Of a stretch of 64,000 nt of DNA, positions 11,850 to 29,566 are shown piece by piece. Source of the DNA: Clostridiaceae bacterium (GTDB lineage: Bacteria > Bacillota > Clostridia > Acetivibrionales > DUMB01); the NCBI GenBank assembly GCA_012840535.1, contig DULF01000095.1, positions 9,069 through 73,068 of the forward strand. The letters are read 5' to 3'. The translations under genes and the position numbers were made by a program. The notes below the pieces were generated by a model. That model saw only the letters and a list, made by a program, of their open reading frames with translations, did no database searches and was not told the origin of the DNA. How positions within the stretch are numbered: position 1 is the first letter of the stretch; the number at the start of each line of letters is the position of its first letter.

Positions 11850-13721
11850 TTATCTCTGATCGCTGATGTTTGCGTTATTGTTTTCAGCAGACAGTTGATC
11901 TATATCTTCATAAGGCGGTCCCATAGTAGTTCCGGGAAGGAGAGCAATATCGACTTCATTGGGGGGCGTACCCCAGGAGTTTCCGAAAAATGTGGTAAAA
12001 GCACGGTCAACGAGGAATCCGCCTTTTGTGTTGTAAACCACATTGTTATTGATGGCACCAGTTGTGTCAGGATTGATATACATTCCGGTCCTCAGGGAAT
12101 AAAAGGTGTTACCCTCCAATAGGACGTTTTGAGTATTCACCTGCGATACAACTGCCCGGTTCACAATCCAATTGTCCATCGGTGGCGGCTGCTCAGGCCC
12201 GTAAATTGTATTTCCAATAATCTTTACATTAGGCGCGCCAATCTGGATGAACTCTCCTACATAAGGCTGGTCGCTGGTCATGGTTAATCCCTGGACAGTT
12301 GCGCCGTTGCCTGTAACCAATATGGGAATAATACCTGCCTTAAGGAGAATCTCCGCACCCGGTTCACCGAGCAGTGTCATTTCCGCTTTGTTCACATTGA
12401 TTTGTGTTGTTACCTCATAAGTGCCGGCTCCAACATGAACTGTCCCACCGGGAGCTACCGCAGCAATACCTTCAGAAATGCTTCCAAACGGATGCGCAAT
12501 ACTTCCGTTTCCTCCCACGCTGCCGGCCTTTACACGAATGTTTTCAGGGTCCACCACTTCATTTACAGCAAGGTCAAGTGCTTGCTGCAAAGCAGCCACT
12601 GATGGATATCCCAGATCAGGGCGGTTTACCAGCAAGGATTGAAGCACTATATCCTGTACTGTTGTACTGAGAGCATTAAAACCGTCAAGATCCAGGCCAA
12701 GAGCGGGATCGGTAATTGCTGCCCGCATTTGAGTAATATCCTGTGCGCTATTGACGGCATCAAGCTGTGGATCTGTAGTTGTCGCTGCACCAATTTTCAA
12801 AATCATGATTGATGCGCTGACCCCGGTTTCTGTTCCTCCAGCGGCATTATCAAGGGTTACATCGCCCGCGCTGGTATGATTCCTCAGGGTTATTTGATCA
12901 CCTGCAGCAGCGTTGATGATTACCATTCCGGAATAACCGTTATTTGCCGTGCTGGTTCCGTACGTGCTTCCAGGTACAGGATTGTCATTCTGGTACAGCG
13001 TAAACTGATTGGGTTCCGCACCGGTTACAGTATACCAGACCGCATAAGTTCCTGCGGAATCAATGTTAATAGTGGCTGTGTTTATATCGTGGCTGATTCC
13101 GAGCAAAGCGCCGTTTCTGTTAAAGGTAACAGAACCATCTACCGGAACTGTCTGATTGTCTGTGTTATAGATATACGCATACGGATTTCCCATTGGAGGT
13201 GGCGGTGGGGGTTCCGTATAGGTAATCACCAGCTTCGGGAAATACGGTTCATATACGATATTATTTGCACCAAACTGTACCAGGGTTTCCCCGTCCGGAT
13301 TCGTCAATGCAATTCCAAAGTTGTCATGAGTACCGTTCAGCCACTCATTCACAAGGGTTGTAATATCAATTCCCACAATCGTGTACAGATCCGATGTATT
13401 GATATTAATCTGTGAAGTTGTGGCGGTAAAGGATGGACGAGTATTGTAAGTTACAGTTTGTGCGTCAAAAGGACTGGTTACTCTGTTTACAATAACAGGG
13501 CTTGGATTTTCGCCGGTTTTCACAATCACGGATAACTGCAGCACCGCACTGTCCACACTTGTTACTGGCAGATCCGGCAAATCAATTTCCATAAGAGCTA
13601 TACACTCTGAAAAAACCGGATCCTGGCCAACATACATCAGCGGGTAAAAGGAAAAATTGTTTGATGGCATGGAAGAAGATACAAAGGTTGTATCAGGTAT
13701 ACCAACAGATATTGTCGGCAT
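11850..13721 (-). CDS. Chimeric surface-type protein: DNRLRE-like beta-sandwich + poly-Pro linker + BclA-C-terminal/C1q-like domain + right-handed beta-helix domain; no signal peptide
   Basis: - The N-terminus carries DNRLRE-like marks (SSMPSNNFS, IDLPDLP, SAVLQL, VTYNTRP, DITTLVNEWLNGTHDNFG).
- A PPPPPP linker follows.
- The next segment, SAGTYAVWYTV...LYQNDNPVPGSTYG...AGDQITLRNH...SASIMILKIG, resembles the BclA/C1q jelly-roll.
- The C-terminus, GGTVHVGAGTYEV...TLLG...VQGLT...IIGNTIYG...LLEGNTFY..., is beta-helix-like. Confidence 0.65.
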   Translation of the reverse strand: MPTISVGIPDTTFVSSSMPSNNFSFYPLMYVGQDPVFSECIALMEIDLPDLPVTSVDSAVLQLSVIVKTGENPSPVIVNRVTSPFDAQTVTYNTRPSFTATTSQININTSDLYTIVGIDITTLVNEWLNGTHDNFGIALTNPDGETLVQFGANNIVYEPYFPKLVITYTEPPPPPPMGNPYAYIYNTDNQTVPVDGSVTFNRNGALLGISHDINTATINIDSAGTYAVWYTVTGAEPNQFTLYQNDNPVPGSTYGTSTANNGYSGMVIINAAAGDQITLRNHTSAGDVTLDNAAGGTETGVSASIMILKIGAATTTDPQLDAVNSAQDITQMRAAITDPALGLDLDGFNALSTTVQDIVLQSLLVNRPDLGYPSVAALQQALDLAVNEVVDPENIRVKAGSVGGNGSIAHPFGSISEGIAAVAPGGTVHVGAGTYEVTTQINVNKAEMTLLGEPGAEILLKAGIIPILVTGNGATVQGLTMTSDQPYVGEFIQIGAPNVKIIGNTIYGPEQPPPMDNWIVNRAVVSQVNTQNVLLEGNTFYSLRTGMYINPDTTGAINNNVVYNTKGGFLVDRAFTTFFGNSWGTPPNEVDIALLPGTTMGPPYEDIDQLSAENNNANISDQR

Positions 13722-14025
13722 GAATTAATTCACATCCTTTCTTTTACTTGAAAGTTAATTTTTTGCTATGTAAACGCGCCTGTAAAGCGGATAACTTTCA
13801 GTTTACATAATTACCCGCTAACCATCTTCCTGTATAAACATTATATTCATTAATTCATGAGATGTTGCATATACTGTCATCATTTATAAAAAATATTATG
13901 TTAACCTCATCTCCCGTTGAAATATGCAAATGTAACATTACATAATCAGTTTGCATATAGTATTATACCAAACCAATTTAAGCATTTTTTTGCTCGAATC
14001 ATCTATGCCATGGGAGGGTATTTTA

Positions 14026-15054
14026 ATGAACAAGGCGTTAATTACAGGAATCACCGGACAGGATGGCTCTTATCTGGCAGAATTTTTATTGGAAAAAGGA
14101 TATGAAGTACACGGACTTATCAGAAGAAGCAGTACGGATAATACTGAAAGGATCTGCCACCTGCTCGATGAACCTAAAAAGGTGACTTTGCATTACGGTG
14201 ATATGACCGATGCAGGAAGCCTTTGCAGATTACTGTACAGGATTGAACCCACCGAGGTGTATAATCTGGCAGCTCAAAGCCATGTGAAAGTTTCTTTTGA
14301 TATACCGAAATTTACGTCAGATGTAAATGCATTAGGCACTCTCATGTTATTGGACAGTATCCGGGAAGTGAACCCGGATATTAAATTTTACCAGGCTTCC
14401 TCCAGCGAACTGTTTGGGAAAGTAAGGGAGATACCACAGAATGAAAACACGCCGTTTTACCCGAGAAGCCCATATGCAGTAAGCAAGCTGTATGCATACT
14501 GGATAACGGTAAACTACCGTGAATCCTATAATTTATTTGCGTGCAACGGAATACTTTTTAATCACGAATCCCCCAGGAGAGGAAAAAATTTTGTTACAAG
14601 GAAAATTACAACCGGAATTGCTGATATATTGACTGGAAAATCAGAGTGCATATACCTTGGCAATCTGGAAGCAAAAAGGGACTGGGGATATGCAGGAGAT
14701 TATGTTGAAGCCATGTGGCTGATACTCCAGCAAGACAAACCCGACGACTATGTAGTCGCAACAGGAGAAACGCATACGGTAAGGGAGTTTTGTGAACTGG
14801 CATTCCGGTATGCCGGTATCAACCTCGTCTGGACAGGAGAAGGCTTAAATGAAAAAGGCGTGGATAAGGAAACCGGCAGGGAATTGGTTCGTGTCAGCAA
14901 AGAGTTTTTCAGGCCGGCGGAAGTGGATTTGCTGTTGGGGGATCCGACAAAGGCAAAAAACAAACTGGGATGGAAACCCAGGGTAACTTTTGAAGAACTG
15001 GTTGCAATGATGGTGAAGAGCGACCTTCAGGCCGCGGGAATAAATATGTATTAA
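14026..15054 (+). CDS. gmd: GDP-mannose 4,6-dehydratase
   Basis: [43 protein letters not shown] (YxxxK) and NHESPRRG are near-canonical Gmd motifs. A GGGAGGG RBS precedes ATG 14026; the ORF-track 5' extension is spurious. Confidence 0.95.
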
Positions 15055-15066: not shown

Positions 15067-16002
15067 GTGGAAAAAAACAGCAGGATATACGTGGCAGGAC
15101 ATACCGGAATGGTTGGTTCGGCCATTGTCAGATGCCTTCGGAGAAACGGGTATGAGAATATTATCCAGAGGACCCATCAGGAATTGGACCTGACAAACCA
15201 GGCAGAATGCGAAAAGTTTTTTGAAGAGGAAAAACCGGAATATGTATTTCTTGCCGCCGCAAAAGTAGGGGGAATTCTTGCAAATGATACTTATCCTGCG
15301 GATTTCATAATGGAGAACATGCTGATTGAATGCAATGTGATCCGCAGCGCCTTTAAGAATAAAGTCAAAAAGTTGATGTTTTTCGGAAGCTCATGTATTT
15401 ATCCTAAATTATGCCCCCAGCCGATTAAAGAGAAATACCTGCTTACCGGTCCGCTGGAACCCACCAATGAAGCTTACGCTTTGGCAAAAATATCAGGAAT
15501 TAAAATGTGCCAGGCTTATAACAAGCAGTACGGCACCCGTTATATTTCAGTTATGCCGGCCAATCTATACGGCATCAATGACAGATTTGACGCTTTCAAA
15601 TCCCATGTAATTCCCTCCATGATGGTAAAATTCCACAGAGCAAAACTGGAGAACCGGCCTTTTGTTGAATTGTGGGGTACGGGCAAGCCTCTGCGGGAAT
15701 TTTTATATGTGGACGACATGGCCGAAGCATGTCTTTACCTTATGGAGAACTATGAAGGCAGCGAGCTTGTTAATATTGGTTCCGGGATGGAAATCAGCAT
15801 TAAGGAACTGGCTGAGATTATCCGGGATGTTGTAGGTTTTCAGGGAGAAATTGTATTTGATTCCACAAAACCTGACGGAACACCGCGCAGGGTTTTGGAC
15901 AATTCAAAGATTTCGGCAACCGGCTGGAAGCCGAAAGTGGACCTTAAAGAAGGCATCAGGATGGAATACGAATTCTACCTGAACATGCTTAAGAACAACT
16001 GA
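15067..16002 (+). CDS. fcl: GDP-L-fucose synthase (GDP-4-keto-6-deoxymannose 3,5-epimerase/4-reductase)
   Basis: It contains IYVAGHTGMVGSAI, GSSCIYP and YALAKISG. A GTG start follows a GGAGGG RBS. It lies directly downstream of gmd. Confidence 0.9.
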   Translation: MEKNSRIYVAGHTGMVGSAIVRCLRRNGYENIIQRTHQELDLTNQAECEKFFEEEKPEYVFLAAAKVGGILANDTYPADFIMENMLIECNVIRSAFKNKVKKLMFFGSSCIYPKLCPQPIKEKYLLTGPLEPTNEAYALAKISGIKMCQAYNKQYGTRYISVMPANLYGINDRFDAFKSHVIPSMMVKFHRAKLENRPFVELWGTGKPLREFLYVDDMAEACLYLMENYEGSELVNIGSGMEISIKELAEIIRDVVGFQGEIVFDSTKPDGTPRRVLDNSKISATGWKPKVDLKEGIRMEYEFYLNMLKNN

Positions 16003-16064: not shown

Positions 16065-16553
16065 TTATTTCTCGGGAAGCAATTGTCTGAGAACATCCAT
16101 CTGGGCCTGGAGTAATGCTTCCGATTTCTTTTTGAAACTATATACTTCATTTCTGATTTCTTCATATTTCATTTGAATTTTGCGTGCTTCATTGTTAGCA
16201 TCATCAATAATTTTCTTTGCTTTTACCTCTGCTTCTTCCACGATGTTCTTCGCCTTTTCACATGCATTTGCCTTGATTTGCTCTGCAGTATGTTGTGCAA
16301 CCAGGATAGAGTGTTGCAGGGATTCTTCAAGTACCTTGTAATGCCGCACCGTCTCATTTAAAGTGGATATCTGGCATTTTAGCTCATGGATGGTGTTATT
16401 CATCTCCGTATAGTCTTCAATAATTTTTACCATTAGGTTATCTACCTGCTTCTTGTTGTATCCTTCAAAATAGCTTCTTTTGATTACAAGGCGGCTTAAA
16501 TCAGTAGAGGAGTAATGCACACTACCATCTCCAAAAACATATTCCTGTAACAA
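16065..16553 (-). CDS. DivIVA-domain protein
   Basis: The N-terminal motif F..GYNKKQVDNLMVKI is followed by a long coiled-coil (heptad-rich, E/K/Q). Confidence 0.7.
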   Translation of the reverse strand: MLQEYVFGDGSVHYSSTDLSRLVIKRSYFEGYNKKQVDNLMVKIIEDYTEMNNTIHELKCQISTLNETVRHYKVLEESLQHSILVAQHTAEQIKANACEKAKNIVEEAEVKAKKIIDDANNEARKIQMKYEEIRNEVYSFKKKSEALLQAQMDVLRQLLPEK

Positions 16554-16586: not shown

Positions 16587-17519
16587 TCATTTTTTTGACT
16601 GCCTTGCTCCTGTTGCCGGGTATAATGTTCCCATAGGGAAAATGTCCCTGTCTTTTGCCGGAATTTGAAAACGTGAAAAATCACGTGTTGAAATCATGTC
16701 GCAGACATCCATTAACCACATAAAATTGCTGATATAAGCATAGAATCTGGCTCTATCCAGGCATGCAGGAGAAATATTATAATATCTGTGTATCCGCTTG
16801 AGGAAATTCTCCCCCAGATGATCCAGAAGCATTCCCAGATCAAAGGCTGGATCGCCAAATCCTGCATTGCAGAAACCAATAATGCCGTTAATTCGTGCAG
16901 AAGCTTCATCAAACAGAATATGGCAGGGTGTTAAATCTCCGTGTATAATCACAGGCCTGAATTCAAAAAATTTTTCATTGTCTATGGCAGGTTGTATAAT
17001 TTGACGTAAATACTCTTTTACATAGTTCGAGCAATATGGGAATATTTTTCTTTGCACCGTTTCCAATTCAACCAGCCATTCTTCCCTTGTCCGGTTCATT
17101 TGGGAATTATTGATTTTTACATACTCTGCTTTTTTTACCGGAATGTTATGCAGCTGGTGTAAAAAGACCGCAATTTGTTTTGCAACAGTATCCTGGGTGC
17201 GGTAATCCAGTTTAAGCAAGATATTCCGGTAAAGTGGCGAGCCCTTTATATACCGGCGCATGGATATATTTTTATCAATCAATTCCGCTTCCGGCAAAGG
17301 CATATCAATAAAATTCTGAATGAAGCGGATCACATCCGCTTCATTTCTAAGGTAAAAAGTGCTCCAGTCATATTTCGCAAATTTAAACACTACCTCGTTA
17401 TTTACAATAACGATATCGCTATAACTCCCGTCGGAGTTATTAAATTCAACTTTTGACAGGCTCATTTGTGGACATTTGCTCTTTATTAATTCAATATATT
17501 TTAGTTCATTGGAGTTCAA
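16587..17519 (-). CDS. Phosphotransferase-enzyme-family (APH/ChoK/CotS-like kinase fold) protein, atypical active site
   Basis: The catalytic-loop-like IIHGDLTPCHILFD is followed by GIIGFCNAGFGDPAFDLG. A Gly occupies the position normally held by the metal-binding Asp of the I-D-F/W motif. Confidence 0.65.
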   Translation of the reverse strand: MNSNELKYIELIKSKCPQMSLSKVEFNNSDGSYSDIVIVNNEVVFKFAKYDWSTFYLRNEADVIRFIQNFIDMPLPEAELIDKNISMRRYIKGSPLYRNILLKLDYRTQDTVAKQIAVFLHQLHNIPVKKAEYVKINNSQMNRTREEWLVELETVQRKIFPYCSNYVKEYLRQIIQPAIDNEKFFEFRPVIIHGDLTPCHILFDEASARINGIIGFCNAGFGDPAFDLGMLLDHLGENFLKRIHRYYNISPACLDRARFYAYISNFMWLMDVCDMISTRDFSRFQIPAKDRDIFPMGTLYPATGARQSKK

Positions 17520-17570: not shown

Positions 17571-18530
17571 TCAATATAATAGTTTGATATTTGTTTCAGG
17601 CCAATCCTTAAGCCGCATCACCATATTGGACAGGCTAGAATAACCGTTGCCGATAAAGAAGTCACACTGTGAAGCCAGGTATGTGTCCTTTATGACTTCA
17701 ATGGTATCCTTGATCAGCTCCACTCCTTTGTGCCTCTTGTTTGGATAGGTCAGAAGGCAAGTGGGCAAACGCTCTTTTAAAGGACGTTTTTTGCTGTCAG
17801 TATATAAAAGCATGCCGTTTGCGCCGTATAGTTTTTTGAAATCTTTCAGTATTTTTTTGGAGTCAGTTATTAAAAATACATGCCTGACGTTGTACCGTAC
17901 AATATACTGCCAGATAAAAGGCCTATAAAGCTCATTCAAATCATAAATCTGCGCCACTTCGTGCACAATGGCATTAGAACGGCAGTGAACCCCGAGTATT
18001 GGCTTTTCATCCCTGAAATCGGGAGTTGTATTGATGTATTTTTTTATTTCCCGTATTACTTCAGGTTTTGGTTTCAGATATTTGTCAAAAAGTTGCCGGT
18101 AAACCTGATAGGGAGTTTTCCCGAAAGACCAGTGGGACCTGTTGGTCCATGCCAATATGGAGCTCAGCGGATAATAAATGTCGCTGACAACAATATTTGC
18201 ATCGCTTTTCATCAGGTTTTTCAAGTCCCGGTATTCCATTTTAAACCTGTCGATGTCTTCTGCAAGAATATTCTCCGAATTCCATGTAGGCGGATAATAA
18301 GAATATCCTGGACGGATAATATCATGGACCGTAAAGTCGGAAACCGGTTCGAAAAAAAACTCGAATGCATTTGTAGCGATGGACTCGCTGTACAAACTTT
18401 CCATACCCCAATACACGACCGGAATCCGGTTGGTTAACTCTGCAGCAAGAAGCTGGCACATGACATGGTCCACATCGGCCCAAATGCTTTTACCCAAAGA
18501 TTTTATTAACAGATAACGATTCGTCTGCAT
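17571..18530 (-). CDS. Fucosyltransferase-superfamily-like protein, paralog 1 (NodZ/GT11/GT65-like motifs)
   Basis: The N-terminus LLIKSLGKSIWADVDHVMCQLLAAELTNRIPVVYWG parallels the G-x-G...R-x-L-V-x-W opening of NodZ/POFUT-type enzymes. Other motifs are LGVHCRSNA (a degenerate HxRxxD) and C-terminal KDTYLASQCDFFIGNGYSSLS. A GGAGGTG RBS is present. No TM segment or signal peptide is visible. Confidence 0.5.
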   Translation of the reverse strand: MQTNRYLLIKSLGKSIWADVDHVMCQLLAAELTNRIPVVYWGMESLYSESIATNAFEFFFEPVSDFTVHDIIRPGYSYYPPTWNSENILAEDIDRFKMEYRDLKNLMKSDANIVVSDIYYPLSSILAWTNRSHWSFGKTPYQVYRQLFDKYLKPKPEVIREIKKYINTTPDFRDEKPILGVHCRSNAIVHEVAQIYDLNELYRPFIWQYIVRYNVRHVFLITDSKKILKDFKKLYGANGMLLYTDSKKRPLKERLPTCLLTYPNKRHKGVELIKDTIEVIKDTYLASQCDFFIGNGYSSLSNMVMRLKDWPETNIKLLY

Positions 18531-19587
18531 ACGTATTCACACCTCCGTATAATTCAGGATATTCCAGCCTATGGCGGATTCTTTCCGATTTTCTTCTCCG
18601 CCGGTCCGCTCTCACACGTTTTTTGGCCAGCTTTATTTCATGCTTCAAATCCCTGTAGAAAAGGACAATATTGTTGTCGGGCCAATCTCTCAGTCGTTTT
18701 ACCGTGTATGATACATTGGAATATCCATTGCCTATAAAGAAGTCACACATTGTAGCCAGGTAGGTATCCTTGATGATCTCTATTCCTTTACGCCTTCTTT
18801 CTGAATAGTTAGTTAGGTGGGGAGCGTTTTTCGTGTCATAGATCTGTCCTCTTCTGCAATCGGTAAAGACCACCATCCGGCCGTACTTCTTCTGAAAATC
18901 GGCAAGAATCTCCTCGCAGTCTGTCAACAACAGGATTTTTTGAATACCGTACCGTTTAATAAATTCTTCTATTGTCCGATGATACCTTTTGTTCAGGTGA
19001 GTTAAGTTTTCTACTTCCCGTACCTTGTCGCCCCCGCGGATGTGAACCCCCAGCAGGGGTTTTGAGCCCTTCATGTGTTCATCGTAAAATTTCTGTATTT
19101 CTTCCTGGATATCTGGTTTTAATCTGATATATTTGTCAAAAAGGCACCGGTATATCTGGTGGGCAGTCATTCCGTATGCCCAATGGCTTTTAGGAATGTA
19201 AGGGATTATGGGGCGGATGAAGTAGTGGGTATCGCTTACCACCACATTGGCATCGCTGTTCATCATATCGCCCAGGTTCCTGTAAGCCCATGCCACTTTA
19301 TCCAAGTCTTCCACCGCCAGATTTTTGCCGTTCCATATAGGGGGATAGTAGGTAAAACCGGGCCGGTTTAAATCTTCCAATGTATAATTGGATACAGGTT
19401 CAAAATATAATTCAAAGGCATTTCCTTTAAAAGATTCGGAATACAGGCTGTTTGTTCCCCAGTAAACGACAGGAATCCGGTTAGTCAGTTCGGCAGCCAG
19501 CAATTGTCCCATTAGATGGTCCACATCTGACCAGAAACCGCAACCCCAGCTTTTAATAAGGAGAAATCGGTCAACTGTCAATTTCAT
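18490..19587 (-). CDS. Fucosyltransferase-superfamily-like protein, paralog 2
   Basis: It has the same architecture, with LGVHIRGGDKV (HxRxxD) and KDTYLATMCDFFIGNGYSNVS, plus a basic C-terminal tail (KKRVRADRRRRKSERIRHR). Its 3' end overlaps paralog 1 by 41 nt. The start is ATG 19587 or TTG 19596. Confidence 0.5.
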   Translation of the reverse strand: MKLTVDRFLLIKSWGCGFWSDVDHLMGQLLAAELTNRIPVVYWGTNSLYSESFKGNAFELYFEPVSNYTLEDLNRPGFTYYPPIWNGKNLAVEDLDKVAWAYRNLGDMMNSDANVVVSDTHYFIRPIIPYIPKSHWAYGMTAHQIYRCLFDKYIRLKPDIQEEIQKFYDEHMKGSKPLLGVHIRGGDKVREVENLTHLNKRYHRTIEEFIKRYGIQKILLLTDCEEILADFQKKYGRMVVFTDCRRGQIYDTKNAPHLTNYSERRRKGIEIIKDTYLATMCDFFIGNGYSNVSYTVKRLRDWPDNNIVLFYRDLKHEIKLAKKRVRADRRRRKSERIRHRLEYPELYGGVNTYADESLSVNKIFG

Positions 19588-20752
19588 CACCCCCAATGTG
19601 CAGTTTTTTCTTTATTGTGCTGTAAAGCTTTTTTACAAACTCCATGATTGAACGCAATATTTTTCTTTCCCTGGCTGTAATCATTCTTACATTGACGGGG
19701 TACTTGCGCTTTTCCCTTTGGCGGAAAAGAAGCTTGACATTTCCTTCAGGCCAGTCTTTTATCCGGTATATCGTCCGGGATAAACTTGAAAAATTGTTTC
19801 CTATGAAAAAGTCACACTGGGCGGCAAGATATGCATCTTTAATTGCCTCTACTCCACGCCTTCTTTTTACCATATGGTTTTCCATATTATATGCCGGTTC
19901 ATTGGCGGTTAACCGCTTACAGTCAGTATAAACAACTGAATCACCGTATGTTTTACGGTATTCCTCTACCACTTCCGCACTGTCGGTAAGGAGGAATATT
20001 CTTTTGATTGCATATTTATTAATCAACTTGCTGATTTCAGCATGATATTGCGTATTGGCTTTCAGCATTCTTCCCTTTCCTAAAAAGAAGTATCTTCTTT
20101 TCCGGTTTTTTGAATGCTTTGTCATATATTTTCCTCTGTTCCTGTACCAGTAGTGCTCTTCCACTATGTCTTTTCTTTCGTCAATGACCATGTTGTCTTC
20201 CTCTCTCCGGACATGCACGGCCAGCAAGGGATGCCCGTCCCCGAGCCATGATTGGTAAAACCCCTGCACCTCCATGAGGATGTCCCTTTTGACCCTTATA
20301 TATTTCCTGTAAAGGTAGCGGTAAATCTCCAGGGCTGTCATGCCATATGCCGCATTATTCTTTTTGATGAAAGGAATGATTTCCGATATTGAAAAATATA
20401 CATCTCCGACGATCACATTAGCGTCACTGCTTATAAGATCGCCGATGCTTCTATACATCCATGTATCCTTGCCGGTATCCTCCATCAGTAGATTGTCAGC
20501 GTCCCAGATGGGCGGATAGAAGGTATACCCGGGTTTGGTCAAATCGAAAATACTGTAATTGGATACAGGTTCAAAATACAATTCAAATCCGTTTGTATGA
20601 ATAAATCCGTTATGCAGACAGTGGGTCGGCCAAAAGACAACCGGTATACGGTTTGTGAGCTCAGCAATTAAAAGCTGACCCAGAACATGCTCCACATCAT
20701 ACCATAACCTGTAACTCCAAGGCTTGATTAACAGGAATCTGTCACCTGCCAT
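19571..20752 (-). CDS. Fucosyltransferase-superfamily-like protein, paralog 3 (with basic insertion)
   Basis: A GAGGTGA RBS precedes ATG 20752 (MAGDRFLLIKPWSYRLWYDVEH...). It contains LAVHVRREED, followed by a Lys/Arg-rich insertion of about 35 aa, then KDAYLAAQCDFFIGNNFSSLS and a basic C-terminal tail. Its end overlaps the start of paralog 2. Confidence 0.5.
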   Translation of the reverse strand: MAGDRFLLIKPWSYRLWYDVEHVLGQLLIAELTNRIPVVFWPTHCLHNGFIHTNGFELYFEPVSNYSIFDLTKPGYTFYPPIWDADNLLMEDTGKDTWMYRSIGDLISSDANVIVGDVYFSISEIIPFIKKNNAAYGMTALEIYRYLYRKYIRVKRDILMEVQGFYQSWLGDGHPLLAVHVRREEDNMVIDERKDIVEEHYWYRNRGKYMTKHSKNRKRRYFFLGKGRMLKANTQYHAEISKLINKYAIKRIFLLTDSAEVVEEYRKTYGDSVVYTDCKRLTANEPAYNMENHMVKRRRGVEAIKDAYLAAQCDFFIGNNFSSLSRTIYRIKDWPEGNVKLLFRQREKRKYPVNVRMITARERKILRSIMEFVKKLYSTIKKKLHIGGDEIDS

Positions 20753-20799
20753 GTAATGGTTCACCTCGCACTCTTTCCGTTTAATTCTTTTCTTCAAGT

Positions 20800-21861
20800 T
20801 CATTTTATGTATACCTGTTGCTTTTGGTGCCACCTGTTCCATTCAATGGTGCGAGCCAGGCCTTCACGGAAAGGTTTGAACGGCGGAAGAGGGAATTCGG
20901 TGCTTACTTTTGTAATATCAAGCTTTACCAGTTTTGGAGAAACCTTGATGTTCTGCAAGTCTTCTTTATTTGGGATTTCCTGAGACAATGCGCTTCCAGT
21001 CAGCAGACATATTTCTTCTGCTAGGGCGCGAATGCTTATGCTGTCCTTTCCTCCCACATTATATACAAAGTCTTTCCCGTAGAGCATTATATAAAGCAGC
21101 ATCAGCACGCTGTCGGCAATGTAGCAGAATGTCCTTACCTTGCTTCCGTCATCCAGCATCGTAATTTTTTTTTCATAAAGAGCCTGCCGCAGGAAATGAG
21201 CCAAGACCCTCTCATCCTTCAAACCGATGCCGGGTCCATAGGTCATGGAAATCCGCGCGATTTTTGCGTTAACCCCTTCAAAGTTTCTATAGGCAAAGCA
21301 CAAAGTTTCACCCATGCGTTTCGACTCAGCGTAGATCGCCCGTACATCCACTGGAGAACACAAGCCGGGGTAATCTTCGCTTGTGGGAACATGTTTTTCA
21401 TCGGGTTCGCCATATACTTCCGAGGAACTTAAAAACAAAAAAACGGCGTTGTCTTTTTTTGCTTTTTTAAGCAGCCTTTCGGTTACTGTTGTATTTAGGT
21501 GAATGGTCTCCAAATAGTTTTGAATAAATTTTTTCGGCTGGGCATAGGTCGCTCCATGGATAATATAGTCAGCCTTCACTTCAAAGCAATCGCAATCCGG
21601 CTTGATCAGATCCGTTGCAAAGAAGGCATAGCGGTCCTTGAAAATATCCTGCAGGTGGCTTCCGGGAGGACTTTTGCTGACAGCGGCAATGTTGATCCCG
21701 GCATTTTTGACGGTATTTGCAAGGTGGAGCATATATATCACATACGTTCCAATGAGCCCGTTTGCTCCTGTAATATAAACTGTTTTATCCCTTAGCGGGG
21801 TAAGATCGATTTTTTCAATATATTCAAGGCAATCTTGCTCAATAATCCTGTCCATAACCAT
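20800..21861 (-). CDS. NAD-dependent epimerase/dehydratase (extended SDR, nucleotide-sugar modifying; UXS/4,6-dehydratase-like)
   Basis: It contains VYITGANGLIGTYV (GxxGxxG), SSSEVYG and YAESKRMGE (YxxxK). Confidence 0.75.
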   Translation of the reverse strand: MVMDRIIEQDCLEYIEKIDLTPLRDKTVYITGANGLIGTYVIYMLHLANTVKNAGINIAAVSKSPPGSHLQDIFKDRYAFFATDLIKPDCDCFEVKADYIIHGATYAQPKKFIQNYLETIHLNTTVTERLLKKAKKDNAVFLFLSSSEVYGEPDEKHVPTSEDYPGLCSPVDVRAIYAESKRMGETLCFAYRNFEGVNAKIARISMTYGPGIGLKDERVLAHFLRQALYEKKITMLDDGSKVRTFCYIADSVLMLLYIMLYGKDFVYNVGGKDSISIRALAEEICLLTGSALSQEIPNKEDLQNIKVSPKLVKLDITKVSTEFPLPPFKPFREGLARTIEWNRWHQKQQVYIK

Positions 21862-21885
21862 CCTCTTTCCTTTTTTACAATATTT

Positions 21886-22929
21886 TTATTCTTTTACCAA
21901 CTTCACCGCTTCGGTGCAAATGTCCTCCGCAGTGGGATAAAAAGCTTTTTCCAGTACATCGCTGGTGGGTGTCGGCGTATCCGGGCAGCATACCCGTTTT
22001 ACAGGCTTCTTCAGCAGATGGAATGCTTTTTCAGCAGCAACGGCGGCTATTTCCGAAGCTACGCTTCCTGTTTTGCAGCCGGTGTCGGCAATCAGAAGCC
22101 TTCCGGTTTTTTCGACGGATTCCACAAGAATCTTTTCGTCGAAGGGCTTTAATGTCCGAAGATCTACAACCTCTGCAGATATGCCTGCTTGCTGAAGCTT
22201 TTCAGCTGCCTTCAATGCCTCCACAAGCATATAGGACACTGCCACAATGGTAATATCTTCTCCCCTGCGGTGAATAACGCCTCTGCCGATGGGAATGGAA
22301 TAAAGCTCTTCAGGAACATATCCGGTTGTCTTGTACAGCCATCTGTGTTCTACAAACAGAACAGGGCTGTTATCTATGATGGATGATATCATTAACCCTT
22401 TGGCGTCGTAAGGAGTGGCAGGGGCAACAATTTTAAGACCAGGAACATTCATCAGCATTCCCTGGATGCACTGTGAATGCTGAGCTCCGGATCCCCATCC
22501 CCTGGCGCTTATTGTTCTTACTACCAAGGGAACCTTTACCTGTCCGCCGAACATATAACACCATTTGGATGCGTGATTTACCAGCTGGTCAAAGGAAAGC
22601 AACAGAAAATCCATCCGCGCGTGAATGAGAATCGGCCTTAAGCCTGCCATTGCAGCTCCAGCGGCTATTCCGGTCAAAGAATTCTCCGCTATCGGAGTAT
22701 CGAATACCCTGTTTGCGCCGTATTTCTCTTTCAATCCCTTGGTGGTTCCAAAAACGCCCGCCACATCATCCACGCCTTCGCCCATGATAAACACTCTCGG
22801 GTCCCTTGCCAGCGATTGATCCATGGCTTCATGCAGCGCATCCCTGTAAGAGAGTATCCGATTACCCGTAAAATCGCCGGATATAAAAAAGTTATCAAGT
22901 TTTTCTACCTGAACTGTCGTCCAAGGCAT
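21886..22929 (-). CDS. TPP-dependent 2-oxoacid dehydrogenase E1 component, beta subunit-like
   Basis: It contains FIMGEGVDD..GVFGTTKGL, DTPIAENSLTGIAAGAAMAG and a transketolase C-terminal region. A GGAAAGGAGG RBS is present. Confidence 0.8.
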   Translation of the reverse strand: MPWTTVQVEKLDNFFISGDFTGNRILSYRDALHEAMDQSLARDPRVFIMGEGVDDVAGVFGTTKGLKEKYGANRVFDTPIAENSLTGIAAGAAMAGLRPILIHARMDFLLLSFDQLVNHASKWCYMFGGQVKVPLVVRTISARGWGSGAQHSQCIQGMLMNVPGLKIVAPATPYDAKGLMISSIIDNSPVLFVEHRWLYKTTGYVPEELYSIPIGRGVIHRRGEDITIVAVSYMLVEALKAAEKLQQAGISAEVVDLRTLKPFDEKILVESVEKTGRLLIADTGCKTGSVASEIAAVAAEKAFHLLKKPVKRVCCPDTPTPTSDVLEKAFYPTAEDICTEAVKLVKE

Positions 22930-23025
22930 GAAAACATCCTCCTTTCCAATAGACAGTACGAGTCATTTTCATCGCCAGTACATATCATTCCTGTCGTCAG
23001 AAAACCATTCTGCCGTCTCCTGTTT

Positions 23026-23991
23026 CTAGTCTGCATACACAAAATCCAGCAGTTCATCAGGTGAGGGTTTTGGAGAGTTCTGCGCAAAACTGAACGCCTC
23101 TTCTATCAAACCGTATATTTCCTCATCAATGTTTTTAATAAGCTCATCATTTAAAACTCCCATATTCTTTAAATATTCCGAGAACCGTTTTATCGGGCAT
23201 TTTGAAACCCAATAGTCATATTCCTCTTTCGGCCTGTAGCCTTCCCCTACATCATCCACCGTTCCGATATGCCCTTTCCACCTGTAAGTCAGACATTCAA
23301 TAAGGGTGGGGCCTTCGCCGTTCCGGCATCTTAAAATGGCTTTTTCGGCATAATCTGAAACTTCCAGCACATCATTTCCATCAATCTTATAGCCCAGCAT
23401 TCCGTAATTTTGCGCCCATTTGTAAATGTTGTCGTCCACCTGCCGTGCCAGCTGGTGCGAGTTGATGGCATAAAAATTGTTTTCACACACATATACTACA
23501 GGCAGCTTTTTCAGCGCGGCAAAATTCAGGCTTTCATGAAAGGTGCCTTCATCAGCAGCGCCGTCGCCGAAAAATACAACAGTTACCCTGTCATTTCCCT
23601 GAAGCTTTGACGCCAGAGCTGTGCCTGTTCCGAGCGGAATATTACCCCCGACAATGGCAGAAGAGCCAAGTATGCCCACATCCGGATCGACAAGATGCAT
23701 CGACCCGCCTCTGCCATACGCACATCCTGTTTTCCTCAGGTACAATTCAGCGATCATTTTTTTTATGTCGCCGCCTTTTGCAATATATTGGGCATGACTT
23801 CGGTGGGTGCCGAAAATGTAATCATCCTTACGAAGATGTATGCAGGCGCCTGCTGCCACCGCTTCCTGCCCGATGGACAGATGGATAGGCGTTTTGATTT
23901 CGTCATACTTGTATTCGTCATTGATTCTTTGTTCAATCAGGCGAATAAGACGCATGATTCTATACATTTCAATCAATTTGCTTTTTTCCAT
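23026..23991 (-). CDS. TPP-dependent 2-oxoacid dehydrogenase E1 component, alpha subunit-like
   Basis: It contains the TPP-binding motif GDGAADEGTFHESLNFAAL..PVVYVCENN, and YRWKGH. Confidence 0.8.
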   Translation of the reverse strand: MEKSKLIEMYRIMRLIRLIEQRINDEYKYDEIKTPIHLSIGQEAVAAGACIHLRKDDYIFGTHRSHAQYIAKGGDIKKMIAELYLRKTGCAYGRGGSMHLVDPDVGILGSSAIVGGNIPLGTGTALASKLQGNDRVTVVFFGDGAADEGTFHESLNFAALKKLPVVYVCENNFYAINSHQLARQVDDNIYKWAQNYGMLGYKIDGNDVLEVSDYAEKAILRCRNGEGPTLIECLTYRWKGHIGTVDDVGEGYRPKEEYDYWVSKCPIKRFSEYLKNMGVLNDELIKNIDEEIYGLIEEAFSFAQNSPKPSPDELLDFVYAD

Positions 23992-24010
23992 ATGTCATCG
24001 CTCCTTTCTG

Positions 24011-25000
24011 TCAATACAAGAGTTTGATCCTGTCGTCTTTCCATTCCTTTAATTCACTTATGGCTGCAGATACGTAAGAATATCCGTTGCCGATAAAGAA
24101 ATCACATCTTGCAGCAAGCCATGTGTCCCGGATTATTTCAAAACCCTTCAGTTTGTTATCCGGATATTCATGAAAATGGATCCCCTGGCCGTCCTTGTGG
24201 ACCCTTTTGCAATCAGTGTGAATCAGAAGTTCGCCATACCTTTTTTTATATTCTTCCAGGATTTCAATGCAGTCGGTCATTAAAAATATCCGTATACCCG
24301 GATTTTCTTTGAGAACCTTTTCTATCTCCGCGGCATACCTGCTGTTTAACTCGTGCAGGTGACGTACTTCCACAATTTTATCGCTGCTTCGGATATGTAC
24401 CGCCAAAAAGGAGGCACCTTTCATATGCTCTTCGTAGAAAGCATCGATAAAAGCCTGAGTCTCTTTTTGCAGGCGGATGTATTTTTGTATCAGACAGTAA
24501 AACAAATCCCTGCGGTTAAGCCCGCAGAGCGGATGCCACTCCGGTATCAAAGGAATAACCTTTTCCACATCTACATAGGTATCCCGGACACAAACATCAG
24601 CATTACAATCATGTAAGAGACAAGAGGTATGGGGTAATAGACAAATATTCCTGGAACAAAAATCGGTGTTTGTCTTCAGCAAAGGGCCTGTTTCCGCATG
24701 TTTACCGCCTTCGGGGAACATTGGGGCCGGATCAAGAATATTCCCGCTGTTCCAGCATTCAGGGCAATAGGAAAATTCTTCCTTCGCAAGATCATGCATG
24801 CTATAGCCTGATACCGGCTGAAAAAACTGCTCAAAGGCATTGGAACCATCGGACGAGGAATACAGGCTGCCTTTACCCCAGTATACAACGGGAACCCTTT
24901 TCATGATTTCCGCAACAAGCAGCTGGGTCAGGACATGGTGCATTTCGTTCCATAATCCCTGGCCTATTTCCCTTATTAATAAGAACTTTGTTTTTCCCAT
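24011..25000 (-). CDS. Fucosyltransferase-superfamily-like protein, paralog 4
   Basis: It contains FLLIREIGQGLWNEMHHVLTQLLVAEIMKRVPVVYWG, LAVHIRSSDKI and RDTWLAARCDFFIGNGYSYVS. It is separated from paralogs 1-3 by the SDR and E1 genes. Confidence 0.5.
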   Translation of the reverse strand: MGKTKFLLIREIGQGLWNEMHHVLTQLLVAEIMKRVPVVYWGKGSLYSSSDGSNAFEQFFQPVSGYSMHDLAKEEFSYCPECWNSGNILDPAPMFPEGGKHAETGPLLKTNTDFCSRNICLLPHTSCLLHDCNADVCVRDTYVDVEKVIPLIPEWHPLCGLNRRDLFYCLIQKYIRLQKETQAFIDAFYEEHMKGASFLAVHIRSSDKIVEVRHLHELNSRYAAEIEKVLKENPGIRIFLMTDCIEILEEYKKRYGELLIHTDCKRVHKDGQGIHFHEYPDNKLKGFEIIRDTWLAARCDFFIGNGYSYVSAAISELKEWKDDRIKLLY

Positions 25001-25024: not shown

Positions 25025-26113
25025 TTAAAGCAGATCTTCATGTCCCTGTTTTTTCAGTTTATCCACAAGAATCTTAACCTTCTGGGACTCATTCCTGGGG
25101 CAAACCAGCACCTCGTCTTTTGTACCTACCACAATCATGTTGTTGACGTCTATCGTACAAATGGTGACATCTTTTCCGAATATAACGGAATTTGTTGTAT
25201 TGACTCCGATATGGCGTCCCATTACCCTGTTGCCTGCCGAATCCGTTTCGAGAGTTTTTGCCAGAGCATCAATACTGCCGATATCATCCCAGTCAAAGGA
25301 CGCCCTCACGGCATACAGGGAAGAAGCACACTTTTCAAGCACCCCGTTGTCGAAGGAAATGCTTTTAAGCTCACGGTAGGCTTTTTCAACTGAGGCTGAT
25401 GTTCCATCTTCCTCTTTCCCCAATGCGTCCGAAAGCTTTTCGTAATGCTCGGGAATGTGTTCCTTTATATTCCTTATAATGACGTCCATTGTGCCGACCA
25501 CTATCCCGCAGTTCCACAGGTAATCATCTGAGCGGACAAGCTCCTTCGCTACCTCAAGGGGCGGTTTCTCAATAAATTTCAACACAGGAGACACTTCAAT
25601 GTCTGCACTTGTCGCAGGTCCTACATGTATATAGCCATATCCTGTCGCAGGATATGTGGGTTTGATCCCGATAATGACAAGGCTGTTGAGTCGTTCAGCT
25701 GTGTCAAACGCCAATTGTAAAGCTTTTGCATAGCTTTCCGTATCTTTTACATACCCGTCTGCCGGTACAAAGCACAAAACCCCTTCCTTATACTTTTTCT
25801 TAAGCAAAAGCGTTGCATAAGCAATACATGCAGCAGTGTTTTTCCTCTCCGGTTCCAGCAATATATTCTCCTCCGGAATGCATTCACACTCTGCCCTTTT
25901 ACACGCTGTCTTTATTGTAATCTCCGACAAAAGCCTGTTTGTTACAATAAAACATTGATCAGGCTGAACAACCTTGCATAAACGTTTAATGGTCTGAACT
26001 AGGATTGAATGGCCGCCTTCTATGGGAATGAATTGTTTAGGGCTGGCTTCCTTTGAAATAGGCCAAAGCCTGGTTCCAGAACCACCTGCCATAAGTACAG
26101 CATATTTTTTCAT
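25025..26113 (-). CDS. manC: Mannose-1-phosphate guanylyltransferase (no isomerase domain)
   Basis: MKKYAVLMAGGSGTRLWPISKEASPKQFIPI is the signature N-terminus. An AAGGAG RBS precedes ATG 26113; the ORF-track extension covers the RBS. Confidence 0.85.
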   Translation of the reverse strand: MKKYAVLMAGGSGTRLWPISKEASPKQFIPIEGGHSILVQTIKRLCKVVQPDQCFIVTNRLLSEITIKTACKRAECECIPEENILLEPERKNTAACIAYATLLLKKKYKEGVLCFVPADGYVKDTESYAKALQLAFDTAERLNSLVIIGIKPTYPATGYGYIHVGPATSADIEVSPVLKFIEKPPLEVAKELVRSDDYLWNCGIVVGTMDVIIRNIKEHIPEHYEKLSDALGKEEDGTSASVEKAYRELKSISFDNGVLEKCASSLYAVRASFDWDDIGSIDALAKTLETDSAGNRVMGRHIGVNTTNSVIFGKDVTICTIDVNNMIVVGTKDEVLVCPRNESQKVKILVDKLKKQGHEDLL

Positions 26114-26350
26114 ATTCTTACACTCCTTAGTCAATGCATTCTGTAATTGCTGTGCCAGCGCCGGCTCACCGACGCCGGACTATGTACCTTCTGAGGAAAA
26201 CACAGTGTATTTTATATTATGTAAATTAAATGAATAAGGTTACTGTGAAAATATACGCACAGCTTGTATAAAGCTTTATGGGTAATTTTTTACAATGGAA
26301 GGCAACCGAGTCGAATGCAGGAATTTGAGACAATCAGGCGGAAAAGCAAT

Positions 26351-26388
26351 AAAAATAAAAAAGAGCGGGTTAAAATCCCGCTTTTTTA
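26351..26388 (-). terminator. Rho-independent terminator downstream of fucI
   Basis: On the minus strand, AGCGGG-ATTTTAA-CCCGCT is followed by CTTTTTTATTTTTATT. The plus strand also carries a T-run, so the site may act bidirectionally. Confidence 0.7.
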
Positions 26389-26473: not shown

Positions 26474-28294
26474 CTATTTTCTGCCATACAACGGGCCAAA
26501 ATTCATGCATGCCCTGTAATCAGCGCCTTCAAGGTCATTTGTGCCAAATGCGCTCCAAGCGCTTGGCCTGAATATCTTCTCCTCGTCAACGTTATGCATG
26601 CATACAGGAATTCTCAGCATTGAAGCAAGCGTAATCAAGTCCGCTCCTATATGCCCATAGCTGATTGCCCCATGGTTTGCTCCCCAATTTGCCATAACAG
26701 TGTAAACATCCTTAAACGCGCCTTTACCCGTAAGTCTTGGTACAAACCATGTTGTAGGCCATGTGGGATCAGTACGTTGATCAAGAATATTATGAATATC
26801 TGCCGGAATATCCACTGTATAACCTTCTGCAATTTGCAATACAGGTCCAAGCCCCTTGATGATATTTACCCTTGACATGGTAACCGGCATTCCGCCCTTT
26901 GTCAGGAAATTCGATGAGAATCCGCCGCCCCTGAAATAACCTCTGCTGGCAGGTCTCCAGGATGTGGCATCGAGGCATCTTCCCACTTCTTCAGGAGTAA
27001 TCTCCCAGTAAGGTTTCATGACAGGTTCGCCGTTCCTGGATTGTTGTCCTGTTCCATCCAGTGTTGTCGCACCTGAATTTATCAAGTGAATTATGCCGTT
27101 TTCAGCAAGGCCTGTGAGTTCTTTTCCTGTTACTCGTTTTACAGCTTCCGGGCTCCAATAAGTCCTGACATCTGAGAAAATCTGGGCAGTATTTGTCAAT
27201 AAATGTCCGAACAGCATAGCAACTCCGTTCAGGCTGTCGTTTTCAGTTGCTACAATAAAAGGTTCCCTGATTCCGTTCCAGTCAAAGGATGAGCATAAGA
27301 TTGCCTCGAGGAAATCTCCATTGGGGAAATGGTCGGTCCATTGCCTCTGTCCCTGGAATCCAGCTGCAATAGCATTGTGGCCTAGTGCTTCTTCCTCAAA
27401 ACCCATTTCTGCCAGCCTAGGATTTCCTATCATTAAATCCCGCGCAATCATGGTCATTTTAACAACAAATTCCCATTCCCAGTCTTTTCTTTCCCTTGAA
27501 GACTGGAGTTCTATCGGGTTGTTGTCCGGACCCTCTTTGCAGTTCTCTTTCACCCATTTAATGGCTCTTTCAAATTCTTCCTTGTCATATATTCCTTCAT
27601 CCATTCTTCTGATGAATTCCGACATGTCAACATATTCATTGCGCATTCCAAGATAGTTCTGGAAAAAGTCAGCATCAACTATTGAACCGGCTATTCCCAT
27701 TGAGACAGAACCCATTGACAGATAAGACTTGCCTCTCATATACGCAACTGCAAGACCGGCTTTTACAAAACGCAATATTTTCTCCCGCACATCTTCAGGA
27801 ATTGTATTATCGCTCATATCCTGCACGTCCCTGCCATAAATACCAAAGGCGGGCAATCCCTTTTGGTTGTGTGCAGCAAGTACAGCAGCAAGGTACACAG
27901 CTCCCGGACGTTCAGTTCCATTAAATCCCCAGACAGCCTTTGGTATGTATGGGTCCATATCCATTGTCTCAGAACCATAGCACCAGCAAGGTGTTACAGA
28001 AAGGGAAACACCTACGCCTTCCCTTGCAAACTTCTCTGCAGCTTGTGCCGCTTCTGCAACTCCACCGATACATGTGTCTGCAATTACACATTCCACAGGA
28101 AGTCCGTTAGGGTGTCTCAGGTTTTCTGTAATCAGTGCCGCTGCTGCTTTAGCCAGGCTCATCGTCTTTTCTTCCAAAGACTCCCTTACTCCTCTGCGTC
28201 TCCCGTCAATTATTGGCCTGATTCCGACTTTAGGCATCGTCCCGCACAATCTGTTTTGAGGTTGGTTTACCTTTAAGCCACTAACATTAGCCAT
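26474..28294 (-). CDS. fucI: L-fucose isomerase
   Basis: It is collinear with E. coli FucI as I recall it: [81 protein letters not shown]. An AAGGAGGGG RBS precedes ATG 28294. Confidence 0.95.
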
Positions 28295-28322
28295 AAAAAA
28301 TCCCCTCCTTGAATATTGTTTA

Positions 28323-28346
28323 TGCACTCGATTGCATTCGAGTGTA
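28323..28346. promoter_or_regulatory. Imperfect 24-bp palindrome, candidate LacI-family operator in the fucI promoter region
   Basis: In TGCACTCGATTG|CATTCGAGTGTA, 10 of 12 positions are symmetric. It lies 29 nt upstream of the fucI start and just downstream of the lacI-type gene. Confidence 0.45.
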
Positions 28347-29537: not shown

Positions 29538-29566
29538 TTATATTTTTTCATTATGTTTTTTCAATA

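Follow-up and report, generated by a model that had tools for sequence, protein, structure and literature searches.

The 64,000-nt stretch of contig DULF01000095.1 from a Clostridiaceae bacterium that was analyzed here (the window, with all coordinates counted from its first letter) carries four paralogous genes, FT1 to FT4, whose products are soluble cytoplasmic paralogs of the NodZ/FUT8 (glycosyltransferase family 23 (GT23)-like) GT-B fucosyltransferase superfamily. Three of these genes overlap in the order FT3-FT2-FT1, and comparison with related loci suggests, with a probability of about 0.62, that the cluster serves a late mother-cell, lipid-carrier-free glycosylation of the spore surface, in which FT2 and FT4 would be the canonical catalysts and FT1 and FT3 their divergent partners. 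Membership of the superfamily is already known, as relatives have been annotated and a soluble bacterial member exists in NodZ. What appears to be new is a conserved, overlapping three-paralog unit with predicted sigma-K-type promoters, in which one active site seems frozen and two relaxed, together with a DivIVA paralog and a kinase; no publications on these genes in spore formers were found in literature searches.

The comparative sample consisted of 73 related loci obtained from a scan of one genome per species, in all of which open reading frames (ORFs) were called and then matched against the window proteins. Orthologous groups were built by clustering 217 family members, which gave clean groups for FT2 (n = 61), FT1 (n = 60), FT3 (n = 50) and FT4 (n = 27), and 10 divergent proteins at the FT3 position extended the FT3-position set to 60.

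Family membership and fold of the four proteins

A preliminary description of this DNA, made from the letters alone, had assigned four ORFs of common architecture to the fucosyltransferase superfamily, and this assignment was borne out by Pfam, by a profile search of PDB and by an AlphaFold model of FT2. All four ORFs were found where they had been described, every one on the minus strand (Table 1), and could be aligned end to end by MAFFT with 68 invariant columns. In this alignment, FT2, FT3 and FT4 were 51%, 42% and 37% identical to FT1, and even the most distant pair tested, FT1 and FT4, was matched by BLASTP with 34% identity (E 2e-60), far beyond chance. The three conserved blocks that had been pointed out were also recovered: an N-terminal block, (F/Y)LLIK...W...H...QLL.AE...R(I/V)PVV(Y/F)W, a central motif that reads HIRGGD in FT2, HIRSSD in FT4, HVRREED in FT3 and HCRSNA in FT1, and a C-terminal block, D(T/A)(Y/W)LA..CDFFIGN.(Y/F)S..S. 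The highest Kyte-Doolittle value over 19 residues was at most 1.43 in all four proteins, that is, no membrane segment was present.

Three of the four proteins passed a Pfam gathering score, namely FT2 with FUT8_N_cat (PF19745; 31.7 vs. 27.6), FT3 with O-FucT (PF10250; 32.9 vs. 31.5) and FT4 with both FUT8_N_cat (32.9) and NodZ (PF05830; 32.1 vs. 28.3), while FT1 stayed below them (19.3) and owes its place in the family to the likeness with its paralogs; NCBIfam offered no family for any FT protein. Searched against PDB as a single sequence, FT4 gave the best NodZ match of the four (E 4e-9). The profile search that had been proposed as a check was run with a family profile of 31 sequences, which matched NodZ over its full length (residues 1-278; E 7e-12) and FUT8 with E 3e-7. 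In the latter alignment, 'GVHIRGsDKvrE' falls on GVHVRRTDKVGTEA, 'LLTDs' on LATDDP, 'iikDtYLa' on VILDIHFL and 'GNGYSnvS' on CTFSSQVC, and the FUT8 residues concerned are those that we take to form the donor site (H363, R365, D368, K369, D409/D410, D453 and S469). Structure prediction pointed in the same direction: the AlphaFold (AF2) model of FT2 (predicted local distance difference test (pLDDT) 81, predicted template modeling score (pTM) 0.78) showed a two-domain GT-B-type fold superposable on NodZ and FUT8, and its top Foldseek match was NodZ (3six; E 2.1e-12, TM 0.53/0.64, ~19-20% identity), followed by FUT8 (6vld_A; E 1.8e-11) and then by AtFUT1, POFUT1 and POFUT2.

The further suggestion that soluble bacterial members of this superfamily would be new could not be upheld, as NodZ is already one and relatives in NCBI and UniRef are labeled 'O-fucosyltransferase family protein', 'GT23 domain-containing protein' or 'Alpha-(1,6)-fucosyltransferase'. 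The first of these names reflects the Pfam model rather than an assayed activity. Since UDP-rhamnose is used by the GT106 enzymes of plants, which fall into the same Pfam family, the fold by itself does not reveal the donor; GDP-L-fucose is inferred as the donor from the co-occurrence of gmd and fcl with the cluster.

The family is large, with 3,853 cluster representatives (50% identity) at E <= 1e-3 and 380 at E <= 1e-30 in a search of 1.84 billion proteins. The transferase domain also resides within very large multidomain proteins, such as a ~2,600-aa ORF of the cyanobacterium Allocoleopsis (L063, 1988-9892) and representatives of 968-1,700 aa (P0125, P0130, P0131, P0177, P0209), and an N-terminal extension of ~100 aa is common among relatives. 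Ectobacillus and Bacillus bruguierae (L062 and L065) have two or three tandem copies beside gmd, all with HIRGSDK and free of FT1/FT3-type divergence, tails or overlaps, which represents a separate expansion of the family in Bacilli.

Active-site residues across the orthologous groups

Each of the four window proteins has motif I (H-x-R), in register with FUT8 and NodZ, and its Arg is presumably the residue that binds the beta-phosphate of GDP (R365 in FUT8, R182 in NodZ). Among FT2 proteins, HxRxxDK and the E, TD, D and S positions were invariant in 61/61 orthologs, and the same set was kept in 27/27 FT4 proteins, save for one ortholog with G for the motif I Asp. The Arg of FT1 was replaced in 16/60 orthologs (44 proteins have R, eight have K, three have H and the other five have I, Q, T or C), even in relatives 84-88% identical to the window copy, which read HCISNAI, HCQSNAI, HCTSNSI or HCHSNAI. 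A similar picture was obtained for FT3, with R in 40 members, C in nine and L in one; over the whole FT3-position set the residue was replaced in 16/60 (by C, L or P), P being found in all six Lachnospiraceae-type proteins, including that of the isolate Lachnotalea glycerini.

The pair that corresponds to D368-K369 of FUT8 is present in FT2 and FT4, variable in FT3 and never found in the FT1 group, where A is followed by I or L. HCRSNA of FT1 had been described as a degenerate form of the motif; the motif is indeed there, but the loss of D and K is a fixed signature of the FT1 group, and NodZ has N and G at these positions, so the D-K pair is not a defining feature of the wider family. Motifs II and III (T-D, the D of KDTYLA and the S of GNGYSxxS) were invariant in the four paralogs and almost so in all groups. 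As judged by the conserved HxRxxDK site, FT2 and FT4 are canonical enzymes, whereas the replacements in FT1 and FT3 indicate that the phosphate-binding Arg is no longer held there by selection. Such drift of the Arg, combined with conserved gene order and gene overlap, is consistent with FT1 and FT3 being accessory or mechanistically altered partners within a coupled assembly, although it falls short of proof.

Natural fusions between FT proteins were not found among the best 150 matches of the 1.84-billion-protein search. One 664-aa FT2-FT1 fusion from a single ENA metagenome contig (P0308) was not counted: its junction, RLPGIIWRCV, is a frame-shifted form of the peptide YPELYGGV at the C-terminus of FT2, and the protein is most likely a frameshift read-through in the tail caused by an assembly error, or possibly a rare true fusion.

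Gene overlaps, tails and insertion

The overlaps between consecutive genes that had been noticed in the window were confirmed. FT2 and FT1 overlap by 41 nt, FT1 starting at ATG 18530 behind a GGAGG that sits within the coding region of the FT2 tail. FT3 and FT2 overlap by 11, 17 or 26 nt, depending on whether FT2 starts at TTG 19581, ATG 19587 or TTG 19596; the first is most likely the true start and matches a 363-aa database entry with 100% identity (a protein of a 'Clostridiaceae bacterium' metagenome-assembled genome (MAG)). The start of FT3 is most likely ATG 20752, which is preceded by GAGGTGA and lies 47 nt past the stop codon (20800) of the upstream short-chain dehydrogenase/reductase (SDR) gene, and no overlap exists with that gene. 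Across the related loci, an 11-nt overlap was found in 31 of 54 FT3/FT2 junctions and in 37 of 60 FT2/FT1 junctions, and the 41-nt version in 10 of the latter 60, which represent the clade of the window. Gene overlap is thus ancestral as far as these junctions indicate, and its conservation supports the earlier proposal of translational coupling. The conserved FT2 peptide YPELYGGV (18490-18560, minus strand) is encoded by the same bases as the ribosome-binding site of FT1, GGAGG, so its conservation may reflect translation signals rather than protein function.

The basic C-terminal tails of the window copies of FT2 (net +8) and FT3 (net +10), as well as the FT3 insertion of about 35 aa, were found as they had been described. 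In the orthologous groups, the tail is ~44 aa long with a net charge of +5 in FT2 and ~47 aa long with +11 in FT3, and FT1 and FT4 have none; the segment that follows HxR in FT3 is kept at 52-57 residues vs. 17. On the basis of these comparisons, tails and insertion are signatures of their orthologous groups. The end of the FT3 tail forms a cationic amphipathic helix (hydrophobic moment 0.79 in the window, ortholog median 0.65), which was predicted by AlphaFold at residues 364-383. FT1 has a 7-aa duplication ahead of motif II.

Predicted sigma-K-type promoters and probable timing

The regions upstream of ManC in twelve loci (the window, close relatives and one Desulfitobacterium MAG) resisted alignment outside a single block, (G/T)AACC-N-AATTTACATAATATA, and a similar conserved block was found upstream of gmd in eight close relatives, where the -10 element was mostly off the strict pattern. 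In C. difficile, sigma-K elements consist of AC at -35 and a CATA-type -10, and bclA1-3 are under sigma-K control (PMC3789822). The ManC and gmd blocks were read as putative sigma-K promoters because both fit this consensus.

Within the window, AC-N17-CATAnnnTA was found five times vs. 2.1 expected, and two of these matches are the putative ManC and gmd promoters. When AC-N16/17-CATAnnnTA was scanned over the 73 loci (2.55 Mb, counting both strands), 177 matches were obtained, 82 of which lie upstream of FT3 (42), ManC (33) or gmd (7). The FT3 matches are located 31-51 nt upstream in 41 loci and 165 nt upstream in one, those of ManC lie within 250 nt in 33 loci, and the exact gmd matches come from seven more distant loci. 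Sigma-70-type promoters were not enriched in the cluster (17 found vs. 24.6 expected), and the only convincing terminator (26364-26382) follows the unrelated FucI gene just ahead of the ManC promoter. From these predicted promoters, transcription of the cluster most likely takes place in the mother cell, at a late stage, which would agree with the SpoIIE gene close by and with the occurrence of the triplet in Clostridia and Bacilli.

Conserved neighborhood of the cluster

In the window, the cluster occupies a minus-strand block of ~10 kb in the order ManC-FT4-E1alpha-E1beta-SDR-FT3-FT2-FT1-kinase-DivIVA, and gmd and fcl, whose adjacency to the FT genes had been reported correctly, run convergently toward its DivIVA end on the plus strand (Table 1). 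The order FT3-FT2-FT1 was fixed in about 60 loci, and the numbers of loci, out of all 73, that contained the other genes were 56 for gmd, 56 for fcl, 52 for DivIVA, 48 for ManC, 44 for the kinase and 40 for E1alpha/beta, so that the proposed link to GDP-fucose synthesis is supported by conserved synteny. The triplet was found in Clostridia (Acetivibrionales/Thermoclostridium, Ruminiclostridium, Oscillospiraceae, Desulfitobacterium and, among Lachnospiraceae, Herbinix, Lachnotalea and Galacturonibacter) and in Bacilli (Paenibacillus and Niallia), the only exception being a MAG labeled Burkholderiales (L054) with Bacillota-like gene content. We know of no explanation for the association of a DivIVA-type protein with a glycosylation cluster. 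Phosphorylation by the kinase might target a free sugar or the hydroxyl group of a sugar. Clustering of all ORFs from the 73 loci revealed no conserved acceptor gene beyond the core, only lineage-specific housekeeping genes (ABC transporters, LeuRS, UvrA and two-component systems), and no priming transferase, flippase, polymerase or exporter was conserved around it.

Table 1. Features of the window discussed in the text, with coordinates, strand and remarks
Feature	Coordinates	Strand	Remarks
FT1	17571..18530	-	319 aa; GT23-like; motif I HCRSNA, lacking D-K; no C-terminal tail
FT2	18490..19587	-	363-365 aa; canonical HIRGGDK; Arg/Lys-rich helical C-terminal tail
FT3	19571..20752	-	393 aa; HVRREED, then basic insertion of ~36 aa; basic C-terminal tail
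FT4	24011..25000	-	329 aa; canonical HIRSSDK; no tail
Sigma-K-type promoter of ManC (predicted)	26213..26240	-	AC-N17-CATAATATA; head of minus-strand operon
Internal sigma-K-type promoter of FT3 (predicted)	20801..20828	-	AC-N17-CATAAAATG; one mismatch; 48 nt upstream of ATG; overlaps SDR stop codon
Sigma-K-type promoter of gmd (predicted)	13935..13962	+	AC-N17-CATATAGTA; 63 nt upstream of ATG 14026
gmd (GDP-mannose 4,6-dehydratase)	14026..15054	+	TIGR01472, 563 bits vs. cut-off 415
fcl (GDP-L-fucose synthase)	15067..16002	+	NF047922, 486 bits, just below cut-off 500
DivIVA-domain paralog	16065..16553	-	PF05103, 116 bits; last gene of operon
APH-fold kinase	16587..17519	-	directly downstream of FT1
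SDR, NAD-dependent sugar epimerase/dehydratase	20800..21861	-	second sugar module
Pyruvate dehydrogenase E1 beta-like subunit	21886..22929	-	thiamine diphosphate (ThDP) enzyme
Pyruvate dehydrogenase E1 alpha-like subunit	23026..23991	-	ThDP enzyme
ManC-like mannose-1-phosphate guanylyltransferase	25025..26113	-	likely start ATG 26113 behind AAGGAG
623-aa protein	11850..13721	-	DNRLRE/CBM96 domain, poly-Pro (PPPPPP) linker, BclA_C domain, right-handed beta-helix
SpoIIE	9145-11550	-	PF19732 (350 bits) and PF07228; adjoins gene of 623-aa protein
L-fucose isomerase FucI and putative LacI-type regulator	26474-29551	-	FucI 1138 bits; directly upstream of cluster
Mfd/TRCF	31437-34931	-	further along window

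The genes ManC, FT4, E1alpha, E1beta and SDR constitute a second sugar module. In the 73-locus comparison, FT4 was always located between ManC and E1alpha, and SDR followed the E1 pair; this five-gene module either forms one block with the triplet cluster, as in the window, or occurs alone on other contigs (L064, L066, L067, L069, L070 and L073), and some genomes have a second module that lacks FT4. E1alpha/E1beta pairs beside deoxysugar genes add a pyruvate-derived two-carbon branch to nucleoside diphosphate (NDP)-4-keto-6-deoxy sugars (Plm8/Plm9 and avilamycin; PMC4802897). By analogy with such pairs, the ManC-FT4-E1-SDR module probably makes and transfers a branched GDP-6-deoxyhexose, and a GDP-linked branched sugar would be unusual in a Firmicute.

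On the far side of gmd, the window encodes a 623-aa protein with a BclA_C domain, which is devoid of a signal peptide and very acidic (58 D+E vs. 19 K+R). From its domains, it looks like a candidate spore-surface protein, and it may be the best candidate acceptor in this lineage. Its gene has its own conserved upstream block, a TGCAAC-N18-TATAAT-like element outside the sigma-K pattern. The presence of SpoIIE and Mfd/TRCF indicates the chromosome of an endospore-forming Firmicute. A link with fucose catabolism, which the FucI and LacI genes might have implied, was rejected, as both were absent from related loci, and FucI next to GDP-fucose use seems to be specific to this genome. In Ruminiclostridium-type loci (L014, 3862-4539, minus strand; L016, L018-L020, L024-L028), a gene on the opposite strand intervenes between FT1 and the kinase, and its product has a signal peptide and is Lys-rich with Ser/Thr/Gly repeats (TTGSAISTTGSAV...).

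A proposed pathway and its alternatives

According to the mechanism that we favor, the mother cell would make GDP-L-fucose late in sporulation through ManC, Gmd and Fcl and, where the second module is present, a second GDP-6-deoxy sugar, probably carbon-branched, from the Gmd product through E1alpha/E1beta and SDR. The FT proteins would transfer these sugars in the mother-cell cytoplasm straight onto a component of the spore coat or exosporium, with neither lipid carrier nor flippase, much as proposed here by parallel with the glycosylation of BclA in the B. cereus group and C. difficile and of the crust in B. subtilis. FT2 of the triplet and FT4 of the second module would act as canonical inverting catalysts; FT1 and FT3 would be translationally coupled divergent partners, which may use an altered active site to attach additional residues or may be accessory subunits involved in targeting. 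The insertion and amphipathic helix of FT3, as well as the Arg-rich tail of FT2, might provide a tether between the enzymes and either the spore surface or acidic substrates. A more specific version, to which we would give only a small chance, regards FT3-FT2-FT1 as an obligate heteromeric GT23 machine, with FT2 as the sole dedicated catalyst, FT1 and FT3 as substrate-recognition or targeting subunits, the FT3 helix and insertion as an anchor on the forespore, DivIVA as a scaffold and the kinase phosphorylating the glycan or its precursor.

Several observations weigh against spore-surface glycosylation by such a division of labor. With regard to timing, the promoters are predictions from consensus match and phylogenetic footprinting, the FT3 promoter in the window deviates by one mismatch, and the -10 element is common to sigma-E and sigma-K, so the call is not unique to the latter. 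The fold is not spore-specific either, since distant single-copy relatives occur in Gammaproteobacteria and cyanobacteria (L061, L063, L068, L071 and L072); the triplet is lacking with single-domain relatives outside Bacillota. No gene for the acceptor belongs to the conserved core: that of the 623-aa protein adjoins the cluster in just 10 of the 73 loci, so this protein cannot be the general acceptor, and the glycosylation of this neighbor that the preliminary description had in mind was not borne out. The nearest NCBIfam models of the kinase are of the APH(2'') type, and no CotS-family model was present among its 22 NCBIfam matches at E <= 0.001. As for tethering, the hydrophobic moment of the FT3 tail is not discriminating, as the globular core of FT2 reaches 0.62, and the AlphaFold model of FT3 is poor (pLDDT 62.5) with an insertion predicted to be disordered (pLDDT < 50); it was too weak for placing the insertion relative to the active site or for judging the fold.

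The division of labor is also the sole point on which the strongest competing explanation departs from the one we prefer. Here, the four proteins would be independent and fully active fucosyltransferases, each adding one residue with its own linkage or acceptor, and a fucose-rich oligosaccharide would be built stepwise. Stable groups and gene order across classes would be expected for such non-redundant sequential steps, the FT1 and FT3 copies of the window still hold the motif I His and Arg, and residues aligned to H363, D453 and S469 of FUT8 are essentially invariant in every group, FT1 and FT3 included (the exception being two Paenibacillus-type FT3-like proteins with Glu at the D453 equivalent). 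As NodZ is active with N and G in place of the D and K of FUT8 and these nucleotide-site residues are kept, FT1 and FT3 may be fully active. However, the Arg equivalent to R365, replaced in 16 of 60 proteins both in FT1 and at the FT3 position, was invariant in 61 FT2 and 27 FT4 proteins, and we therefore consider this explanation possible, yet clearly less probable than divergent partners. A glycan of growing cells (S-layer glycan, capsule or secondary cell-wall polymer) is improbable: gmd, fcl and manC with several glycosyltransferases are indeed the usual make-up of a surface-polysaccharide locus, and relatives exist in non-sporulating phyla, but no priming transferase, flippase, polymerase or ABC exporter is conserved with the cluster, the FT proteins have no membrane segments, sigma-K-type motifs are conserved instead of sigma-70-type promoters, and the triplet was found only in endospore-forming lineages, apart from the MAG labeled Burkholderiales. 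Least probable of all, and scarcely to be expected, is a role in small-molecule or natural-product metabolism, in which fucose and a branched deoxysugar would be attached in the manner of avilamycin/paulomycin-type pathways. These antibiotic pathways use dTDP-sugars and GT1 enzymes, and no polyketide, nonribosomal peptide synthetase, terpene or resistance genes were found around the cluster in the window or in the conserved neighborhood. In favor of such a role, the E1alpha/E1beta pairs described to date that introduce two-carbon branches come from the synthesis of antibiotic deoxysugars (PMC4802897).

Comparison with known systems

NodZ of Bradyrhizobium and other rhizobia (GT23; PDB 2hhc/3six) is likewise a soluble cytoplasmic bacterial enzyme of ~320 aa, and the likeness extends over the full length, including the N-terminal R-x-x-V-x-W block, HxR and motif II; besides being the best structural match of FT2, it resembles FT1 in lacking the D-K pair after HxR. 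In contrast to the cluster described here, with its four paralogs, three overlapping genes and predicted sporulation-type promoters, nodZ occurs singly, as part of a nod cluster, and its product fucosylates a lipo-chitooligosaccharide and has neither basic tail nor insertion. FUT8, the animal core alpha-1,6-fucosyltransferase (GT23; PDB 6vld/6x5h) and the second-best structural match, shares the exact HxRxxDK with FT2 and FT4 and aligns at the TD, D and S positions, whereas its Golgi type-II membrane anchoring, N-terminal coiled coil, C-terminal SH3 domain and N-glycan acceptor have no counterpart here. POFUT1 and POFUT2 (GT65/GT68) belong to the same superfamily, and FT3 passes the O-FucT model (PF10250), but they are weaker structural matches, reside in the lumen of the endoplasmic reticulum and recognize folded EGF/TSR modules, none of which is encoded near the cluster.

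Spore glycosylation systems (B. anthracis BclA with the rhamnose and anthrose operons, C. difficile SgtA-BclA3, and B. subtilis sps/cge/cotSA-cotS) resemble the cluster in having nucleotide-sugar genes beside the transferases and, as far as the lineage of the window is concerned, in the adjacent protein with a BclA_C domain; their mother-cell expression of the sigma-K type and their soluble glycosyltransferases in the mother-cell cytoplasm are predicted for the cluster as well. We also take the kinase-fold gene beside the transferases to be reminiscent of cotSA-cotS. GT2/GT4 enzymes with dTDP- or UDP-sugars are used in those systems, whereas GT23-like enzymes with GDP-fucose, and probably a branched GDP-sugar, would be used here, and the overlapping three-paralog unit with its DivIVA paralog has no described counterpart in known spore systems. 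In streptococci, serine-rich-repeat adhesins are glycosylated by GtfA-GtfB, two paralogous GT-B proteins of which one is the catalyst and the other, whose catalytic residues have been lost, aids substrate binding. This pair may be a model for FT2 with FT1 and FT3, but it belongs to another GT family, and FT1 and FT3 keep most nucleotide-site residues.

Implications for spore biology and the fucosyltransferase fold

The glycans on the surface of spores govern how these adhere, disperse and are recognized by the immune system, as well as their hydrophobicity, and detailed knowledge of such glycans is limited to a few Bacillus species and C. difficile. If the proposed pathway is true, a GDP-fucose-based system built on NodZ/FUT8-type enzymes would be present across cellulolytic and gut-associated Clostridia (Thermoclostridium, Ruminiclostridium, Oscillospiraceae and Lachnospiraceae) and in Paenibacillus. 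If the triplet should turn out to be a heteromeric machine, it would be the first complex of the fucosyltransferase superfamily to contain pseudo-glycosyltransferases and a new, widespread route to spore-surface fucosylation. In addition, small soluble bacterial relatives of FUT8 could be tractable models or biocatalysts, and a set of paralogs in which the catalytic Arg appears to be either frozen or free would provide a handle on the evolution of non-catalytic roles in the fucosyltransferase fold.

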